DNA of 63,671 nucleotides, the filler included, from Collodictyon triciliatum (taxonomy: Eukaryota): assembly GCA_043381765.1 (NCBI GenBank). It is 12 parts of 12 records of this genome, joined end to end, with 100 filler letters (N's around TTAATTAATTAA, not from the genome) between each part and the next. Parts side by side here need not be neighbours in the genome. Positions count along the whole stretch, not along the records: positions 1 to 10,949 come from JBHJMP010005539.1; 11 more parts are not named here. One strand, given 5' to 3'. The notes under the pieces are model-generated. The model did no database searches. It saw nothing but the letters and a program-made list of their open reading frames with translations, and was not told where the DNA came from. Shown in pieces: positions 1-16,360 of the stretch. The translations under genes were made by a program, and so were the position numbers. Every line of letters begins with the position of its first letter. Position 1 is the first letter of the stretch.

Positions 1-94
<94 letters not shown>
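1..94. repeat. (TAA)n microsatellite, intronic in the GMC gene
   Basis: Perfect TAA run from the window start. Confidence 0.95.
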
Positions 95-95
<1 letters not shown>

Positions 96-103
96 TGCAT
101 TAC

Positions 104-3100
104 TGGGTGGTAGCAAGTCCAGGAAAATTGCTTGGCATATTCCCGGAGGTCCTATGACAGGGAAATTGTAAGGACACCATCCGTTGGACATTGATCGACT
201 TCACAATATCCCGAAGCAGGAAGTATTTCCTTATATTAAAACCTTTTTGTCGGTTATATGAGCTCCAGGCTGAACTTCTTGAGCAACATATTTCATTTTT
301 TGTGCAATTCTTCTCACTCTCTCAACACTTTCAATAAACGGATCTAAGTCTTCGTCATTCTTTAGATAATTTAACAAAGTAAATGCTTCATGTTTTTTTC
401 CCCATAAGCGCATACCGCCAACATGTGTGAATTACGAATGTTTGTTAGAAATGTGGATGAGAAATACTTGTAGGAACTGAGGGTCAATGAGTGGAGCATC
501 CGATGGATTATTTGACTGTAGGCGGACGGTTCCCTTGGATTTGTAGTGAAGTAAAGTGTGGACTGCAACAAAACACGAAGCCTTTTTATCTTCTACTCTC
601 TTTGCAAAACCACTGTCGATTAAATGTTTGGGATACCCAGGGTCCTTCGGCAATGGAAGACCATACCTAACTGACATTTCCTATAGGTAAGTATGAACAA
701 GTCAGTCCCAAACCAAAATTTAATTATCTGTTACTTTTTTGGTTCCACAGATAACAAATAACAAATAACAAATAACAAATAACAAATAACAAATAACAAA
801 TAACAAATAACAAATACCAGATATAATAAAAATAACAAAAAATAACAAAAAATAACAAAAAATAACAAAAAATAACAAAAAAATAACAAAAAAATAAACA
901 AAACATCAAACTATAAACAAACAAACAAACAAACACACAAACAAACAAACAAGCAAACAAACAAACAAGCAAACAAACAAACAAGCAAACAAACAAACAA
1001 GCAAACAAACAAACAAACAAACAAAAAAAGAGAGGGAGAAATAACGGATAAACCTCAAATGTCCCAGCAGGGGAAAAGTGAATTTGGACGTCAGGTTGTA
1101 GGTGCTTCTGGTCAAAGTCATTAGAGGGCTCTATAGCGCGCATGAACCCAGATGCTTCCAAAGCGCCGGTCGAGATTGGACCTTTGCCTGTGGAAATCCA
1201 GCTAGCCGCAGCCTAAGGGAAGATAATAACAGAGAAGAAAGAACATATCCATATATGAAATACAAAGAAGTCACAGCTATTTGAAGTAACTTTAAGAGTG
1301 CCCCAGAAAAGGGCGACTTCATTCTTGATGTGAAATGAGATGGTCTAATCATTCATGAAACCCATCACGGTAGTATAAGTATGGATATATTTCCTACCGA
1401 AACAATGCTGACATTGTGTTTATCATAAGTGATAGGTTCTTTGGACTCAAATGAATGGAAGACATTAACATGGTCTTGGAGGTTGGCTCCAACACCCGGA
1501 AGATCGACAAGAGTATGAATCTGAAATGTTTTTTTTTTTTTTTTTTTAATGTGAACGGGTTCATATGAATGGCCAAATCTAATTTTCTTTCACCAGAAGA
1601 CTAATTGCACTGAAATGACTAGGATTAGGAATATGATTAGGAATAGGAATGAGTTCTTTGATGTGCTAGTTACCTTGAATTGCGACAGATGTTCTTTTGG
1701 TCCAATTCCCGATAGCATGAGTATTTGTGGAGAATTGATAGCCCCAGCACACAGGATTACTTCTTTTTGACAAAACAGCTGATATGTCCTTTATTATTGT
1801 CATCATGGTTGTTGAAAATAAAAATGAGAAAATTTATGCTGTTTGATAACTAACTTTGAATCAAATAAAGGGGAAAAAATGTTGTTTGATAACTATTATA
1901 CAAAAATAAATAAAAGAAAATATCACTTCTTTTCATGAACAAATTCAACCCCGACGCTTCGATTACCCTGGAATAGAATCTTGTTTACATGGCAATTTGT
2001 AAGGATTTTGAGATTTTTACGACCAGAAACCTGTTTGACAAATATAGTTTAGGTTTATTCACACCACAAAGCTTAATAAAAATTAAAGAGTATGTTAGCA
2101 GAAGTAGAATTCTCGTAGGTCAAATTTCAAAGCAGAAAAACTATTGAAATAAAACTTACCGGGCTGATAAATGCCCTTGCAGTACTACATCTATAGCCGT
2201 TTCCAACGGTCAATTGCAGGGGACCGAAGCCGAACTGGGATGCTCCGTTATGATCGGGATTCATTATTTCACTACATTTTTGTAAACCCAAACAGAAAAT
2301 TATATCATTTGAATATAAAACAAATCCTGATTTTCCATATGACTTTAAATATGGGTGCTTATATAAAAATGTATTTCATTTTCGCTCAATGAACTGTTGA
2401 AATGAAATAAAAAAAAAAAAAAAGGGGGGGGGGGGGGGGGAAGGTTTCATTACCCAGCCTTTTTAGAAGCTTCCAAAAAATCTTTTGTGATAGGGTTGAG
2501 ATCTGGTGAGGTTACTTTCAACATGCCCCCAGAACCGTGATAAATAGAAGCACCGCGGTCATTATCCTCAGATTTCCTAAAATATGACAACACCTAGCAA
2601 GCAATTAAGTGACACAGGCGATAACATGCATGAACTATGGAACCGAAGGAATACTAGAAAAGTTCTCGGAATACGAAATAGTGGGCTGACCAACCTTATC
2701 ATACGACCAAGAATCATCACCAACCAATTCAGCCCATCGGTTAAAGTCGGCAGCATTTCCTCTGATATAAACCATGGCTTGTGATTTGATGAAAAGCGGT
2801 CATTCAAGTGAGTACAAATTGGTTTCGAAGCAACTCGCATGGAAAAGGCCTGAAAATTTACTCGGAAAGCAACATCTATGTACGAAAATGAATGCACATG
2901 ATACAAATGATACCATTAGTAGAGCTGCATCCACCCATGACCTTTCCACGGGGATATATCCTTATCATAAAGAAGAGCTGTCAGATATATGCTTCCGATA
3001 CATTTTTTTTTTATTCTTCCTTTCAATTTTGTGCAGGATGGTGAAGATGTTGGATATGCTTCCGATACATAAAAGATACTCGATACTTTTCTTTTATCCA

Positions 3101-3825
3101 TGGTTTTCTTTTAGAATGCCAAAGGGGCTCACCACTTATCTCCTCTCTTCCAAAGTGGGTTTCCAGTTCCCGGCTGACTTGTTGTCCAGTAGCCCCAATC
3201 GTACTTCTCTGCTAATGAAGCATCCACGTGAATCTCAGGCCATAACGCTGGTAGCTGGATGAAGAGGGAGGAATCCGGCGGCCCGGACTCTAACAAAACA
3301 ACGCGGTTTCGTGGATCTTCACTCAAGCGAGAGGCCATAACGCAGCCTATGAGGATTTTTTTTTAAAAAAAAAGTAAAGAGATTGAGTTATAGTAATATC
3401 TTTGACAAATCAAACAGAAAAGGAATAGATTTTAATCCTCGGGGACATTGCAGTTCAGCAACATATCATTATGATGAAAATCATTACCAGCCGAGCCTCC
3501 TCCGATGATAATATAATCGCACCCTTGGTGAACAACTGAAAATATGGCGAAGTCGGTCACAGAAATGAAATAGACGACGAAAATAAAAAGAATGAAACAT
3601 AAACCGAGAGGGTGGGATGAATATCAATATTTGGTGTGCGAGGTGTTTGTATAGACAGTTCTCCCTCCAAGCACCTTGCAAGCTCTTTGGGTCTTTGCAC
3701 AGATAAAAGAAAATTGAGTCGATCTTTTGGTTCTATGCACCTTGTTCTGGGGTGGGTGTGGAACGCGTGAAGTAGTACGCCAAAGAAGCTCCTACGAAGG
3801 TGCCTGCTACAACCTTTCCGTCCAT
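104..3825 (-). CDS. GMC oxidoreductase (choline dehydrogenase/alcohol oxidase-like), multi-exon, 3' end outside the window
   Basis: Spliced reading: [59 protein letters not shown] (FAD-binding Rossmann motif), [64 protein letters not shown]. Confidence 0.92.
750..1030. repeat. Compound (AAATAAC)n/(AAAC)n microsatellite in a GMC intron
   Basis: Directly visible; it produces the spurious CLFV-repeat ORFs. Confidence 0.9.
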
Positions 3826-4229
3826 TTCCTGGGGACAGGTATTCATAAGTTTATGGGCAAAAGAGCAGAAGTTTTTCTGGTTCGAGTTTTATTCATCTGG
3901 TGGAGGAGAACGGGGGCGATTGGAGGGCCTCAGTAAAAAAAAACAAAAACAAAAAAAAAGTATGGCCCTCAAAGCCTTTCGTGGGGGTTTGCGATGGTTG
4001 AAACCAAGTGGGAGTTGTGGAGGTGAGCAATCTTTGACTTGTTTTGTTTTTCTTAGGCGCGAGTGTAAGACAATTCACATTTCGCTAAATTGGAATTTAT
4101 AGTAAATTATATGTATTACGGATAATATTCGACTTCAGTCTGCCATTGTTATTATCCTTTTCTTTTATTCAGTTTTTTAGTCTTAATGAAATAATATATT
4201 ATGACACATGTTTTTTTATTCTAAAAGTC

Positions 4230-4795
4230 TTAGCTGTCGAGCCCATCTCAACAATCTTTCATTCAACCATCAGGCAAGTAGTTCCAAAGTAGTTGGGATG
4301 TGTGGGAGATAGAAAAAGAAAAACAGGGATAAAGGGATAAAAAAGAAAAAAGGGAAAAGAGAGGTCCTTGAGGCTTGATAAGAGACGCATGGATTTCTTT
4401 TGGGGACGCATGATAGCGTCCCATGAGCGTGAGAAAAAAAGGGACGGGTGATGTTGATTGGATGGAGGAGGGGAAATACTGCTTTGATGGCGCAAGCTGT
4501 CGAAAAGGATAGTGAAAAGAGAAGTGAGGTTCGTTTGATAAGCACTAGGTCGAGTGCAAAGAGGACTTCTCTGCATGGTTGACTCACCTCCTTCCAGACC
4601 GTGTTAGGGTCTTTTCAGTGGGGTTGTCGAAGGGATTTCTCCCTCTTGCTTGCAAAAGAAACCTCTGACTATAAGCTTCCACTCCCTGGTATCTCTCACA
4701 GCCAAGGTCGGGAGTTTTGGCTTTGTTACCTCAGGTCTTGCAAGTGGATTTGGTCAGCTATTCAGGACTCACATGTCATGAGGTGTTAGCTGCCT
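4230..4795 (-). mobile_element. Possible degenerate non-LTR retrotransposon 3' fragment (CCHC zinc-knuckle relic)
   Basis: The minus strand gives RSPLCTRPSAY and, after a frame change, NEPHFSFHYP. This resembles the CPLC..E..HFLFHCP knuckle at the end of LINE ORF2. GC is higher than in the flanks and the sequence runs into an assembly gap. Confidence 0.35.
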
Positions 4796-5667
4796 NNNNN
4801 NNNNNNNNNNNNNNNNNNNNNNNNNNNNNNNNNNNNNNNNNNNNNNNNNNNNNNNNNNNNNNNNNNNNNNNNNNNNNNNNNNNNNNNNNNNNNNNNNNNN
4901 NNNNNNNNNNNNNNNNNNNNNNNNNNNNNNNNNNNNNNNNNNNNNNNNNNNNNNNNNNNNNNNNNNNNNNNNNNNNNNNNNNNNNNNNNNNNNNNNNNNN
5001 NNNNNNNNNNNNNNNNNNNNNNNNNNNNNNNNNNNNNNNNNNNNNNNNNNNNNNNNNNNNNNNNNNNNNNNNNNNNNNNNNNNNNNNNNNNNNNNNNNNN
5101 NNNNNNNNNNNNNNNNNNNNNNNNNNNNNNNNNNNNNNNNNNNNNNNNNNNNNNNNNNNNNNNNNNNNNNNNNNNNNNNNNNNNNNNNNNNNNNNNNNNN
5201 NNNNNNNNNNNNNNNNNNNNNNNNNNNNNNNNNNNNNNNNNNNNNNNNNNNNNNNNNNNNNNNNNNNNNNNNNNNNNNNNNNNNNNNNNNNNNNNNNNNN
5301 NNNNNNNNNNNNNNNNNNNNNNNNNNNNNNNNNNNNNNNNNNNNNNNNNNNNNNNNNNNNNNNNNNNNNNNNNNNNNNNNNNNNNNNNNNNNNNNNNNNN
5401 NNNNNNNNNNNNNNNNNNNNNNNNNNNNNNNNNNNNNNNNNNNNNNNNNNNNNNNNNNNNNNNNNNNNNNNNNNNNNNNNNNNNNNNNNNNNNNNNNNNN
5501 NNNNNNNNNNNNNNNNNNNNNNNNNNNNNNNNNNNNNNNNNNNNNNNNNNNNNNNNNNNNNNNNNNNNNNNNNNNNNNNNNNNNNNNNNNNNNNNNNNNN
5601 NNNNNNNNNNNNNNNNNNNNNNNNNNNNNNNNNNNNNNNNNNNNNNNNNNNNNNNNNNNNNNNNNNN
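4796..5667. other. Intra-scaffold gap (872 N, no linker)
   Basis: Run of N without the TTAATTAATTAA spacer. Confidence 0.98.
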
Positions 5668-8419
5668 TGTAGATTCTGGAACAACACTTATAGAAAAAAT
5701 GAAAACAATGAAAGCTTTAAATTTTGGAAAGGGAGGTGAGTTTAACACTGCGGTGAGAGAATCGTTAATCGCATTTGCTAACTCACTAAAAGCTCCAGGT
5801 GAAACACGAGAGTTTGGAAAATGGACAGTCAATTCAATTAATTATTTTTTTGATAATGTTCAATTAGTTAATGAAAAAATACCAACAGCATCCAATATAT
5901 ACGAAACTCATCAACAGGCAGGAGTAGCAAGGTCTGCAAGTGCAAGTTTAGACCCTTCAAGAGCTGGGTCACAAGTAACCTCAGGAGTTGTAACCAGGTC
6001 ACAAAGCAAACAAGCAAGTGAAGCACCTTCTCAGCAAGAGTCAAAAAAAAAACTGTCACCTGAAAAAGAAAAAGAAAAACCAAAGACTCATCCAAAACCT
6101 GCACCAACTTTAGATATAGAAGCCGTATTAAAAAGCCCAAAGTTAAAACCATTAATTGAAAAGAAAAAGTCAAAAAAAAAAACCAAGACCAGTGGTTGAT
6201 GAATCAGAGAAATTTGTAGCTGCTGACACTTTTGATTTCGAAACCAATAGACCTAAAGATACACCTTCACCTCCAAAAGAAAAAACTCCTCCTCCAAAGG
6301 AAAAAACTCCTCCTCCAAAAGAAAAAACTCCTCCTCCAAAAGCAAAAACTCCATCTCCTCCTCCAAAGGAAAAAACTCCACCCAAAAAATCACCACCGAA
6401 ACAACCAATTCCTCAAGAAAAGCCAATTGTAAAAAAAAATAATTATCTTTCTCACCGATGGAAGAGTCACCTAAAGAACGTCGCAAATCATTATTTGAAA
6501 CAAAATCGGAGCCATATAAACAAATGGTGATGCAAAGGTGGGGCAATCAATTAAAAATAATGTACAGCACTAAAACTACTGTATCAAAGTTTTTAGGTGT
6601 GTTGAGTGATTTTCTTGAAACAACATCAATTCCTGACAAAGTAAAAAAGCGTAAATTTTTGTTAAAGAAAGTAGGTTTGTTGTTGGGTGATGATTCTCAT
6701 AAGTTTTTTAATAAATCATTTGGATTTAGGATGCCTGACATAGATAATGATGCTGATTTAGATGGGGACGACTTGTTTATAGATTTGACTGATTTTGTAA
6801 TGAAAAAACAGGTTGCACAGCCTGCGATAATTGAAAAGTTTATTAATTATATTTTGTCTCTTACCAAACAAAGTGAAATTACAAAGGGTGTTAAAGTTAT
6901 TGAAGCAGAAGCGACACCTGTTAAATCAGACGCAGTTAGAAAAAGTTTTAAAAGCCCAAAGCAACTGGCTATGGAAGAAGAGCTTGCAAAGAGAGCAAAG
7001 GAGAAGGAGGGGAAATCAGCAAAGGCTATAGAAGAACAAGAACAGAGGAAGGAGCAGATAAAAAAAGAAAAAGAGAGGACTGAAAGAGAAATATTTGCGC
7101 AGGCAAAAGATCAGGCAGTAAATAGAGAAAAAACAGAAAAAGATAAAGAGGAAGGATTAGAATATCAAAAAATTCCATTGATGGACCGATTTAATTTTTA
7201 TAAAACAGATGAAAGTTATCGATTTGCGACCAGTCAAGTATTGACTAGCATTAACACACTACCTCCAGAAAACGAAAGTTTAAGGCAGTCATTCTTAAGA
7301 CAATTGTACACGGAATTTCAAAAAGTTTTAGAACGATTGGGATACGATTTCAATAGAGATAGGTTAGGAATCAATAATCTAACTTTGGATATCGTAAACG
7401 ACCCTGAAGACCGATTGAATTTTACAAATAATATATACTTTGCAGTATTTAACGAACTGAATGCATTAACCTATATTAGTGTTACACGAGTTGTAAGAAA
7501 TTTGGGTCAGTTGAAACCCTATATAATTGATAATATGAATCAATATGCCAAAGATTATAGTAAAACTAGATTTGGGGAAACATCTACTATGATTGCCGCT
7601 AAATAAAGCAAGGGGTGAAAAAGAAGTGGATATATCTGAGTTGTATGGGACTGCTTAAAAAAATACTTCTAGGAGAGTCGTTTATTTTGGGTGATGAGAC
7701 AATTTGTTCAAAGACTATTTTTGATTGGGACTATGATATTTCAGTATATTTTGAGGATGCTGAAGATATAGTCAATGCTATTGCAAAAGGAAGAGCTGAC
7801 CGTGTCACACTAAATGTTTTTGTAGATAACGTTACTAATCATTCGGAATGCATAAGATGTCTTATGATAATATTAAAAGAATGAAAACATTTTTTGAAGG
7901 TATTAATGAACCGTTGGAAATTCTATTTAGTCCAGAACAATATTCATTGGTTCCATTAGATCATTGGCATTTAGACGGAAAAGCTACATCTATGTTTTTA
8001 AAAGCAGTTCGTGAATTATTTTTGGGTTTACAAGTCGAATATTCCTTTGAGAATTATTTAAGATTCGTTGATAAATATCGAAAAAGAATGTTGGATGTCT
8101 CAGAACATATGGTAGGGTATCGTGTTGATGATGTTTGGATATATCTGATGTCAAAAGATACTAACCACAGGAAGATGATTATGCAGACGCCCAGACAGAT
8201 TTCAATATAACTTTTAATACGGTTTTAGCAGAGGATGTTGATTTGCTAGAAGAGTTTGGAATAGAACCAGATGATCGACAAGGTATGATTGAAAGTAAAA
8301 AATCTTCAGCGCGCCCACCATCTTTAAAATATAGGACTATTGCAAGAGGACGATCAAAATATTTATTTAAAATCTGGTTAGATGAGAATAGAACAAGATT
8401 TATAGGTATAACTGCATAA
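5668..8419 (+). pseudogene. Large disrupted intronless orphan gene (or two genes), Lys/Pro/Glu-rich
   Basis: ORF pieces 5669-6199, 6156-6530, 6458-7606, 7615-7884, 7848-8210 and an unlisted frame 8165-8419 (PQEDDYADAQTDF...RFIGITA*) chain together through single-base shifts at A11 6172-6182, 6431-6442, ~7600-7680, ~7845 and 8163. Confidence 0.65.
6270..6385 (+). repeat. 21-nt coding tandem repeat encoding PPKEKTP
   Basis: cctccaaa(a/g)gaaaaaactcct, about 5 copies. Confidence 0.9.
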
Positions 8420-8439
8420 ATAAATTTCTAAGTAGGTAT

Positions 8440-9288
8440 ATGGCTGATACTAGTGGGGATACGATAGCTTACACAGGTAAAGGAACTCAAGGAACAGGAA
8501 GCAGATGTACAATTGTAAGAGAGGTAGGTGGACGCGCCCCTCGTGAAGATGAAGATGACCCAGCGGGTGAGTTTACATTAAGTGTATTTAAAATTGAAAT
8601 TGCTGAGGGATTTCGTATGGCTCAGGGTGAATGTTTTGAAGCTGAATTGACAAGAGTAAAACAGAGTGAAAATATACCAACGAGAAATCTGTCAGACTTT
8701 ATTGAAAGTCTTAATGACCCAGATGTATTCCTACAGCAAAAGAAACAGAACCTAATCAAACAATTTGAAGAGCTAGGTGCGCAATATATTCAATTCCCCA
8801 ATGAAACTAATAGGGACATTGTGAGACGACTAGACTTAATAAAAAAAAAAATAAAGATACAGAACGAAGCATATGCATCTATGCGCACAGGTGAGCCTTT
8901 GAAATTAGAAAAAGGATTTATTCAAACATCTGAATTTTCCCAGGAAAAGATTTTATCAAGCGTAGTGAATAGCAGCCCCACTTCAAAAATTATAAGATTC
9001 ACAAGTGGTATTTCTGAAGTCAAAATTGTTCCTGATGGTAATGGGCAATACTTTGGTGTGCAATCTGGCAAATGATTCGGTCCTGGGAAATTCCCTGACA
9101 TCGAACGCTGGGCTCAACGCGGTGGGTTTGAGGCAAACGAGAAACGTGAATTAAAAAAATATTATGGGCGCTATCAAGGACCCCGAAAAGATGAAGGCGG
9201 TTGTATTCAGAGCACGCAAACTTTAAAGGGATTGGTTATTTTATTCAGAAGACGAATGCAGTCCCATAATGGCGGTACAGCAGCGTGA
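8440..9288 (+). pseudogene. Intronless orphan gene with an internal TGA at 9073-9075
   Basis: 211-aa ORF. The same frame stays open for 70 codons past the TGA (QSGK*FGPGKFPDIERWAQRGG...). Confidence 0.6.
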
Positions 9289-9553
9289 AGGCAATCAGTT
9301 GAAGTTCTTCATCGTCGTCGTGGTCTTCATTCCAGTTAATAACGAGTCCTCTTAAATTGTCATATAGTCCTTCTTCCTCAAAGTTTGGCCAGGCTTTGCT
9401 GATGCGGTACATCGTCACAAGTTTAAGTTTTTTGTGTTCGTAACTTTGCAAATGTTGCCGTCTGGGATGTATATCAATTGTAAGTGCGCGGGTCACGGAG
9501 TCGAATTCGATTGTGGCCTCGTGATTGCCGAATTAGAAGATTTCGTCTTTCAT
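9245..9553 (-). pseudogene. Small intronless orphan gene with a premature TAA at codon 7
   Basis: ATG at 9553 gives MKDEIF*FGNHEATIEFDSVTRALTIDIHP..., in frame with the listed ORF 9245-9496. Confidence 0.6.
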
Positions 9554-9622
9554 TTTAATAAGATGTATTCTGAGTATTTGAGCTGGTGTGAATAATATTA
9601 AATATCAACTTTATACAACATT

Positions 9623-9630
9623 TCAATTTT
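9623..9630 (-). promoter_or_regulatory. AAAATTGA, matching the Mimiviridae early promoter octamer
   Basis: Exact octamer ~70 nt upstream of the ATG at 9553. The same octamer also occurs in host introns of this window, so support is weak. Confidence 0.3.
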
Positions 9631-10007
9631 ATAAAAATCTATCGGCGCTGGGTCGCTGGGTCGGTGGTAGGGCCAAGCATCGCCGTAGGAAATTGTTGTT
9701 ACTGCAAAACTGCACAAGTGCATAAGCTAAAGTATAAAATATTAAACCAACCTACATAATCTGATATTATATTTATCTATATAGTTAGATAAAAATAATA
9801 CCATAATCTTTATATTATATAATAGTAACTAGGATAATTATCTATGTAAATCATAGGGTTGGATTCTATGTTAGTGTGTCAGTGTTTGCAGTCTCGCCTG
9901 TCATCGGCACACATCTTTCAGTGTCAGGGCATATACTCGGAAAGCATTGCAAATATAGTATCAGAAAACGGTTTTGGGTGAATTTTTGGGATTGCGGGCT
10001 TTAAGTG

Positions 10008-10008
10008 A

Positions 10009-10066
<58 letters not shown>

Positions 10067-10192
10067 ACTATTATTACTATTATTATTACTATTATTACTA
10101 TTATTATTACTATTATTACTATTATTACTATTATTACTATTATTACTATTATTACTATTATTATAACTATTATTCCTAGTATTAGTATTAGT
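10008..10192. repeat. (ATT)n/(ATTATTACT)n microsatellite
   Basis: Directly visible. Confidence 0.95.
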
Positions 10193-10949
10193 AATCTTAA
10201 AAAATGGATTTTATTTTTCAGTTTTCTTTGATTCCCTTCTGCTCTGCCTACACCAATAATTATTTCTTTTTATGAACCACAAGTCCGTTGGTGATGTGTT
10301 ATTTTCGTCGGTTTTGCTCATTCTCTGTATATAAGAACTCATTAATACGAGTTAATCTTTCGTTTTTTCTTTTCTTTGTTCTTCATTTTCTCATTTTATT
10401 TCACGCTCTGCAAACACTGTCGTGGTGATGAATGGTTTACGTGCTTCTCTTGAGCAGATTAATGACAAAAATCAAGATTCTATCGCAGTCAACACCTCGC
10501 ATGTAAACCCCTCCAAAAAAGAACCAAAAGCAAAAAGCAAAAAGGTATTCTACACCCAAACCAAATTAAATATTATAATCCAGATATAGAAAAAACAGCA
10601 GATAGGAGAATCCGTTATTGTGGGTGGTGATCATCAACGCAATCAGTATGGAACAACCCTCCGGCACTGAAGCCTGCAAAGAGTGCCCCTCTCAGATGGA
10701 AACAGAAATAAAAGGCTGAAAAGAAAAAAAAATAAAAGTGATAGTTACGGACTACATGCGTTTTAAGAAAGTACCTCTTGTGCACCCACTTGCCGGGCTC
10801 ATCCCCGGCTCCGAAGGGCGAACAGAGTCTCAGAGCAGACTCCTTTTGCCTTTTGCTTTTTGCTTTTTGCTTTTTGCTTTTTGCTTTTTGCTTTTTGCTT
10901 TTTGCTTTTTGCTTTTTGCTTTTTGCTTTTTGCTTTTTGCTTTTTGCTT

Positions 10950-11049
10950 NNNNNNNNNNNNNNNNNNNNNNNNNNNNNNNNNNNNNNNNNNNNTTAATTA
11001 ATTAANNNNNNNNNNNNNNNNNNNNNNNNNNNNNNNNNNNNNNNNNNNN
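10950..11049. other. Artificial contig spacer (44 N + TTAATTAATTAA + 44 N); the 12-mer starts at 10994, 16133, 21272, 26402, 31530, 36657, 41780, 46900, 52020, 57139 and 62256
   Basis: Identical palindromic six-frame stop linker inside N runs; spacing falls steadily from 5139 to 5117. Confidence 0.98.
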
Positions 11050-15724: not shown

Positions 15725-16360
15725 AGCCTGCAGCCAAATATAGGAAGCTGACCCTCACCACTTTGAATCGAATAAAGGAAAAAAAAAAGCTGACCCTCAC
15801 CAGCATTAAGATAGAGAAGAAAAGAGAAGAAAAAAGAAAAAAGAAAAGAAAAAAGAAAAGAAAAAAGAAAAGAAAAGAAAGAAAGAAAGAAAGAAAGAAA
15901 AGAAGAAAAGAAAGAAGAAAAGAAAGAAAAGAAAGAAGAAAAGAAAGAAAAAAGAAAGAAAGAAAAAAAGAAAAAAAGAAAAAAAGAAAGAAAGAAAAAA
16001 AGAAAAAAAGAAAAAAAGAAAAAAAGAAAAAAAGAAAAAAAGAAAAAAAGAAAAAAAGAAAAAAAGAAAAAAAGAAAAAAAGAAAAAANNNNNNNNNNNN
16101 NNNNNNNNNNNNNNNNNNNNNNNNNNNNNNNNTTAATTAATTAANNNNNNNNNNNNNNNNNNNNNNNNNNNNNNNNNNNNNNNNNNNNTCTTTTTCTTTT
16201 TCTTTTTCTTTTTCTTTTTCTTTTTCTTTTTCTTTTTCTTTTTCTTTTTCTTCTTCTTTTTCTTTTTCTTTTTCTTTTTCTTTTTCTTTTTAAAAGAAAA
16301 AAGTAAAGTTCAAGTCAAACCTATATGATCGGCTGTGATGATTTTGTTTTATGACCATGG

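Follow-up and report, generated by a model that had tools for sequence, protein, structure and literature searches.

A decayed two-gene island in Collodictyon triciliatum as a candidate fragment of an undescribed compact mobile DNA element

The DNA analyzed here, referred to as the window, is a stretch of 63,671 nucleotides of the eukaryote Collodictyon triciliatum (assembly GCA_043381765.1) in which 12 independent scaffolds are packed: the longest has 10,949 nt, the shortest 1.36 kb, and the other ten about 5.0 kb each. On the longest of these (JBHJMP010005539.1, positions 1-10949), an island of dense, intron-free coding spans positions 5668-9557 and comprises one large gene (AB), one small gene (C), and one small open reading frame (ORF) on the reverse strand (D). 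The plus strand is open from the end of a scaffold gap (5668) to 9224, the frames succeeding one another as 2, 0, 2, 1, 0, 2, and 1, in agreement with the compact, intron-free coding that an earlier note on this DNA had described. GC content was 0.42 to 0.53 at first codon positions (GC1) versus 0.11 to 0.29 at third positions (GC3) in eight of the nine frame segments, a strong codon-position periodicity. Given this contrast, and since every segment is collinear with uninterrupted relatives, coding in the island lies far beyond chance. The same note had pointed to a 20-nt spacing between genes and to convergent gene ends, and both were found: 20 nt (8420-8439) separate the AB stop codon (8417-8419) from the ATG of gene C (8440), and about 20 nt lie between the end of gene C and position 9245, where the minus-strand ORF terminates. 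The "orphan genes" it had announced are not many, since the island holds only two genes and one small reverse ORF.

Gene AB (5668-8419, plus strand) corresponds to proteins of 1057 to 1168 aa in its relatives. Its first ~200 codons fall within the 872-N scaffold gap (4796-5667), and the tblastn alignment of the relative P0024 begins at residue 204, base 5669, which bears out the suggestion that the left part of the island was lost in this gap. The first preserved part of the gene (5668-6440, plus strand) is a conserved domain followed by a basic proline-rich linker, with a frame break near 6172 and a frame change between 6440 and 6458; it is 57.6% identical to residues 204 to 356 of P0024. Inside the linker lies the PPKEKTP tandem repeat noticed earlier (6255-6390, plus strand; six copies with a period of 21 nt), whose copy number differs among relatives, an X1 metagenome contig skipping 42 nt from 6269 to 6312. 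The second part (6458-8419, plus strand) encodes a domain, then a long coiled coil, and finally C-terminal domains that close with the conserved tail KYLFxIWLDxxxTxxIGIT, and is damaged by breaks near 7604, 7655, 7846, and 8133 and by an in-frame TAA at 8162. The 382-codon ORF starting at 6458 had no match in a word-indexed protein search; its relatives came from an exhaustive HMMER search, where it matched two clusters by phmmer/HMMER, P0024 (1057 aa, E value of 8.7e-65, residues 445 to 819) and P0025 (1168 aa, E value of 7.6e-43, residues 574 to 942). By tblastn and alignment, six pieces of AB (5669-6172, 6174-6437, 6458-7603, 7657-7845, 7848-8132, and 8165-8416) are collinear with one protein. 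At the change from frame 0 to frame 2 at 6440-6458, no indel was listed, while P0024 to P0027 are fused across this point; A and B may be separate ORFs, 15 nt apart, in the sub-lineage of the window. Overall, AB strings together several small globular domains, with basic proline-rich repeats and a coiled coil of 70 residues as connectors. The linker repeats are PPKEKTP in the window and of the KSPxK type in P0025, resembling S/TPKK DNA-binding motifs.

Within AB, positions 7944-8015 form a locally diverged or recombinant patch, 17 listed substitutions relative to all four metagenome runs described below lying inside 72 nt and touching every codon position. Two enzyme assignments for AB were considered but set aside. 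An RNA-dependent RNA polymerase had been suggested by the GDD of P0024, but neither the window nor P0025 keeps this motif. For a GIY-YIG nuclease at the tail of AB there is only a hairpin-like motif, the protein ending there in all relatives.

Gene C (8440-9224, plus strand) has relatives of 226 to 304 aa and is interrupted in the window by an in-frame TGA (9073-9075) and a frame break near 9153. Its 211-codon ORF at 8440 retrieved seven relatives from the word-indexed protein collection (E values of 3e-112 to 2e-43), all from metagenome-type sources (JGI/IMG, Logan, ENA, and NCBI) and named "hypothetical protein" at most. The closest of them, P0001 (260 aa, 88% identity), begins with the same residues, MADTSGDT, as the product read from the ATG at 8440. 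It reads past the TGA at 9073, and its tail is encoded in the window by another frame at 9155-9223, as seen by tblastn. At the place of the TGA, 14 of the 15 family members have R and one has K. The family combines a variable, often charged and unalignable N-terminal arm with an almost invariant C-terminal domain of 148 residues, 95 of these 148 columns being invariant among the 15 members. Relatives of AB and C were found on contigs of equal length, 4945 nt for P0024 and P0015 and 6620 nt for P0027 and P0004, suggesting, without proving it, that the two genes are neighbors in the relatives as well.

Positions 5668-10000 were compared with four metagenome runs from four studies, two labeled freshwater, one labeled "metagenome," and one unlabeled. 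Evidence on habitat is taken from these four, to the exclusion of 16 further runs that had small word shares. Contigs 85 to 99% identical to the island were present in all four runs, and a single contig of 3686 nt covered 5668-9201 with 215 substitutions. One-base length differences relative to the window occurred at 6172, 7604, 7655, 7846, and 9153 in three of the three runs truly covering each place, and at 8133 in four of four; these are the places where the window shifts frame. X2 depth lacking the difference at 6172 consisted of short matches to the A-rich tract, with loose ends at 6046 and 6080, and was set aside. The window copy thus carries at least five frame breaks and one in-frame stop in AB, and one in-frame stop and one frame break in C. 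Both stops (TAA 8162 and TGA 9073) are lesions by substitution. The breaks at 7604, 7655, 7846, and 8133 lie outside long homopolymers, and those at 6172 and 9153 lie within A runs. Other scaffolds carry intact long host ORFs (1.2 and 1.7 kb), so the breaks are not accounted for by a general rate of indel errors. Among the 40 of 342 differences that were listed, 39 coding differences between the window and the covering runs fell on codon positions 1, 2, and 3 in numbers of 12, 14, and 13, an even spread that would be as expected of neutral drift on the window branch. Two other explanations of the broken frames were discarded: an alternative genetic code, since indels account for the frames and the relatives have R or K, and not W, opposite the TGA at 9073, and tiny introns at the frame breaks, since the relatives are collinear without introns.

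In run X8 (415 million letters), we observed a 6270-nt relative with a word depth of 40 that matches the window only over 8844-9201, at about 91%. Together with 9873-10004, this is the only part of the window matched by an abundant (depth 40 to 50), otherwise diverged relative, at ~90% nucleotide identity. Conservation of the two segments appears to include synonymous and non-coding sites. The 3' half of gene C and the non-coding segment may thus be kept at the nucleotide level, through recombination or through a cis-acting role. A gene present once in a genome of tens of megabases could not give a depth of 40 in so small a run as X8, and we infer a parent entity whose genome is small or multi-copy.

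The right part of the island varies among relatives. ORF D (9245-9557, minus strand; ~100 codons) is convergent with gene C, has an in-frame TAA after its sixth codon, and matched no family in Pfam, PHROGs, or NCBIfam. Contigs of X1, X4, and X8 cover 9172-9443, and other contigs of X1 and X8 depart from the window at 9230, with a loose end bearing a 16-nt motif that matches the window near 9640. Judging from these contigs, ORF D looks like an optional cassette, and the stretch 9231-9640 that holds it behaves as an insertion/deletion polymorphism among the metagenome relatives. The relatives are thus mosaic, the ORF D cassette being present or absent among contigs and the 6270-nt contig matching over 8844-9201 only. 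Farther right, the conserved non-coding segment 9873-10004 is matched by a high-depth metagenome contig (X8 depth of ~40 over 9873-10000), and an X8 loose end at 9974 goes on with similar letters; the segment may be the right end of the element. It had no Rfam match, the island likewise having no Rfam or tRNA match, and the predicted fold of 9855-10007 was not more stable than shuffles (z of +1.5). The earlier note had put the end of the island at 9700; coding reaches 9557, and the segment shared with a metagenome contig lies beyond that stated end.

The island scaffold consists of a left contig (1-4795), the 872-N gap, and a right contig (5668-10949). There is no N within 5668-10949, placing the island and the microsatellites that follow it on one contig, as had been claimed. 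The first of these, an (ATT)n/(ATTACT)n tract at 10008-10170, comes directly after the conserved segment and is a host-type flank, the (ATT)n type being found on three other window scaffolds. Left of the gap lies a split host gene for a GMC oxidoreductase (approximately 400-3620, minus strand), seen as exon-sized ORFs, of which two separate pieces match GMC_oxred_N (profile positions 35 to 65 and 181 to 210). Maximum room for an insert, from the end of the GMC gene (~3620) to the microsatellite (10008), is thus ~6.4 kb. The remaining scaffolds gave partial RRM, PH, L28e, ankyrin, and HEAT matches, the pattern expected of split genes. The earlier note's picture of split host genes around the island therefore holds for the GMC gene on the same scaffold, but most host genes lie on other scaffolds, and adjacency across any of the linkers between scaffolds is meaningless. 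These linkers (N44-TTAATTAATTAA-N44, six-frame-stop) lie at 10950-11049 and then at 16089, 21228, 26358, 31486, 36613, 41736, 46856, 51976, 57095, and 62212.

Composition also sets the island apart. Its GC3 (0.11 to 0.29 in eight of nine segments) is below that of all 11 host ORF pieces sampled (0.35 to 0.89), and its composition thus appears foreign. The relatives are uninterrupted ORFs, while the genes on the island scaffold and on the other scaffolds are split. Beside an ordinary host gene, AB and C stand out by at least six checked frame breaks, the frame change near 6440-6458, two in-frame stops, and the low GC3.

We then turned to known families and folds. Against Pfam, PHROGs, and NCBIfam, all window ORFs and their relatives gave only matches with E values above 0.001 and below the cut-offs, and neither Pfam nor PHROGs gave a capsid or penton match in the nine window ORFs or in P0024, P0025, and P0001. 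A gene C profile reached a best E value of 0.017 against PDB sequences. No library searched (Pfam, PHROGs, NCBIfam, and PDB sequences) thus names either protein, in line with the suggestion that this might be an undescribed family. No relative was found in phage or plasmid records by tblastn or in the GTDB contigs of 185,579 prokaryote genomes, and no relative of AB or C came from an annotated eukaryote source (UniRef). In the ESM Atlas the AB piece had no match, and the gene C domain had only leads of 0.90 to 0.92 to unnamed or mis-named bacterial and phage clusters, on which we did not build. The AlphaFold model of the 382-aa AB piece (pLDDT of 65, with residues 12 to 150 at 85 to 90) is mostly helical, with a 70-residue helix, and that of gene C (pLDDT of 52, from 15 sequences) is weak, showing four strands plus helices. 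Fold searches with the two models yielded nothing above a Z score of 6.5 or at an E value of ≤0.001, only coiled-coil matches, and BFVD gave no match at an E value of ≤0.001. The Mimiviridae-type motif AAAATTGA occurred at chance level (13 matches versus 16.8 expected).

The data show the AB-C module, intact relatives of it, and the lesions that the window copy has suffered. We favor, by somewhat more than an even chance, the reading that an undescribed mobile DNA element of compact build, be it virus-, plasmid-, or transposon-like, left an integrated and now dead fragment as this island. On this best reading the element belongs to no described family. Published element catalogues may already contain the AB-C module. 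Integration had been put forward in the earlier note, and several results agree with it: the island looks foreign and is continuous with the microsatellites, and metagenome relatives that are 90 to 99% identical and free of the window's frame breaks fit a decayed integrated copy.

If so, the parent would be a compact, intron-less DNA element whose intact form still circulates in freshwater microbial communities. Its core would be a module of two genes, AB (~1060 to 1170 aa) followed after ~20 nt by C (~230 to 300 aa), to which some copies would add the small reverse ORF D and the conserved non-coding end. A copy would have entered the eukaryote genome from outside and then undergone neutral drift; a fragment of at most ~6.4 kb would have been inserted upstream of the GMC gene and have decayed, now standing ~6% from its nearest environmental relative. 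Because neither AB nor C looks like an enzyme, the two are probably a structural or nucleic acid/chromatin-binding pair, with a role of the packaging, partitioning, or virion type, and functions in replication and integration would sit elsewhere on the parent element.

Several points weigh against an integrated mobile element. Searches of the profile libraries gave no integrase, transposase, reverse transcriptase, polymerase, ATPase, or capsid signal in the island or its relatives, nor any protease, primase-helicase, or recombinase signal in the 3.9 kb present or the full-length relatives, the left part of the island lying in the N gap. Some transposase families have no profile models. By protein or DNA pattern scans, no relative of AB, C, or D was found in 2.9 million IMG/VR contigs. 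JGI contigs of 8 to 15 kb that carry relatives (14,737 nt with P0025, 13,111 nt with P0021, and 8,317 nt with P0010) are absent from IMG/VR, and the usual viral classifier therefore did not flag them. Relatives also lie on Logan contigs of 6,620, 6,270, and 4,945 nt. No terminal repeat was seen between the right end (9225-10007) and the left contig (3600-4795), the only match being one of 16 nt at chance level and the true left end possibly lying in the gap; a target duplication was likewise not observed. The other 11 window scaffolds (53 kb) hold no second copy, and the connection of the island to the split host gene spans the 872-N gap. Finally, part of the apparent decay could be an assembly artefact, since Bellas et al. 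(2023; PMC10120064) found that error correction removes many of the stop codons seen in endogenous viral elements of protist genomes assembled from short reads.

In an alternative, the 5.3-kb right contig would be an assembly chimera or contaminant, derived from another organism or from a free element in the culture or sample, its breaks being assembly errors due to low coverage or to collapsed multiple copies. The occurrence of the same element in environmental DNA, a link to the split host gene that runs across the gap, the position of two breaks (6172 and 9153) in A runs, and the frequent disappearance of such stops upon correction, as just cited, would all be accounted for. The four breaks outside long homopolymers, the origin of both in-frame stops by substitution, the even distribution of the listed substitutions over codon positions, and the unbroken ORFs of 1.2 to 1.7 kb on other scaffolds argue otherwise, as does the fact that the contig ends in microsatellites as other scaffolds do; we give this explanation little probability. 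We think it similarly improbable that AB and C are host-lineage genes, or a multi-copy transposon, of poorly sampled freshwater eukaryotes, with the window holding a pseudogenised paralogue and the metagenome contigs stemming from related hosts. The proteins look eukaryote-like in their low-complexity linkers and coiled coil, have no relatives in the viral, phage, plasmid, and prokaryote collections, and are represented in X2 by 4, 14, 11, and 14 contigs in four identity classes, as diverged repeat copies would be. Yet an intron-free pair spaced by 20 nt does not resemble this genome's split genes, host exons have a different GC3, UniRef offers no relative from an annotated eukaryote source, and the depth of 40 in the 415-Mb run would argue against single-copy cellular DNA.

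The earlier note had proposed the island as a candidate giant-virus, virophage, or Polinton-like element. As a rival to an undescribed element, this would make it a fragment of such an endogenous virus, AB and C being lineage-specific accessory or structural genes and the hallmarks having been lost in the gap or never integrated. The compact packing, the 20-nt spacers, and the convergent ends fit such an origin, as do the AT-rich composition unlike that of the host and the relatives in freshwater metagenomes. Contigs of up to 14.7 kb carrying relatives are within the size range of these viruses, and such elements are abundant in aquatic systems and protist genomes (PMC10120064). Nonetheless, none of the three proteins has a relative among the IMG/VR contigs, no PHROG or Pfam viral family was matched, and capsid, ATPase, polymerase, and integrase signals are missing from the island and the full-length relatives. 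The jelly-roll fold that the note had proposed to look for does not appear in the two models, which are helical or small alpha/beta at low to middling confidence; BFVD and AAAATTGA were equally unsupportive, and the insert room is at most ~6.4 kb. Positive evidence thus emerged neither for a giant virus, virophage, or Polinton-like virus nor for any known transposon class, and a viral origin of this described kind seems unlikely to us.

Comparison with known systems places the undescribed element in context. Like the endogenous Polinton-like viruses, virophages, and Mavericks of protists (PMC10120064), the island has intron-free, tightly packed genes of foreign composition in a eukaryotic genome, which appear broken in the assembly and have relatives in aquatic metagenomes. 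Their double jelly-roll capsid, penton, packaging ATPase, protease, polymerase/primase-helicase, and integrase are not detectable in the island, no terminal inverted repeat was seen, and its relatives are absent from IMG/VR. Those elements measure 14 to 40 kb, and because there is room for at most ~6.4 kb, the island could be at most a fragment of one. With Nucleocytoviricota fragments the island shares orphan, AT-rich, intron-less ORFs and low-complexity linkers, but no hallmark, giant-virus orthologue, or BFVD fold match was detected in it. Giant-virus spacers are typically wider than the 15 to 20 nt seen here. Dictyostelid small nuclear plasmids and mimivirus transpovirons are small, high-copy, AT-rich elements with few large ORFs lacking known relatives, and no sequence similarity to them emerged in any search here. 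Eukaryotic transposons without library models resemble the island family in their diverged copies per sample, their short contigs breaking at variant points, and their decayed genomic copies. They differ in that the island showed no catalytic domain, terminal repeats, or target duplication, nor a second copy in the 53 kb of other scaffolds.

A more specific version of the integrated-element reading is possible, though we hold it clearly less probable than the general form. AB and C would be the signature module of an unrecognised class of small DNA elements, episomes or viruses, of freshwater microbial eukaryotes, devoid of known hallmark genes. The almost invariant C-terminal domain of gene C, in which even synonymous sites appear to be kept among members that differ elsewhere, would dock on some host machine that is itself highly conserved, or would serve in addition as a nucleic acid signal in cis, and the window would provide the first link of this class to a host. 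Should the integrated-element reading hold in its general form, a eukaryote genome would retain in fossil form an element still living in lakes, one recognised by no viral or mobile-element catalogue. A metagenomic gene family that is otherwise anonymous would thereby gain a host lineage, and a dated (decayed) integration would be on record. Two new protein families would become available for studies of structure and function, one of them containing a domain under unusual constraint. It would also call for caution in scans, the hallmark-based pipelines behind the viral catalogue searched having missed the AB-C family.

Other scaffolds of the window gave observations of their own. A 581-codon open frame with HEAT repeats (44898-46640, minus strand; HEAT_EZ, E value of 3.5e-11) has 66% GC and a GC3 of 0.89, while the surrounding scaffold and the genome are at ~36% GC and GC3 falls to 0.53 in the adjoining piece of that frame region (44895-45150), an extreme compositional jump inside one apparent gene. 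On another scaffold, a 399-codon uninterrupted frame (32214-33410, plus strand) with no Pfam match at an E value of ≤0.001 is unusually long for a genome of split genes. Lastly, one host scaffold carries both a tRNA-Val(GAC) (27866-27940, minus strand) and a tRNA-Leu(AAG) (30564-30645, plus strand).

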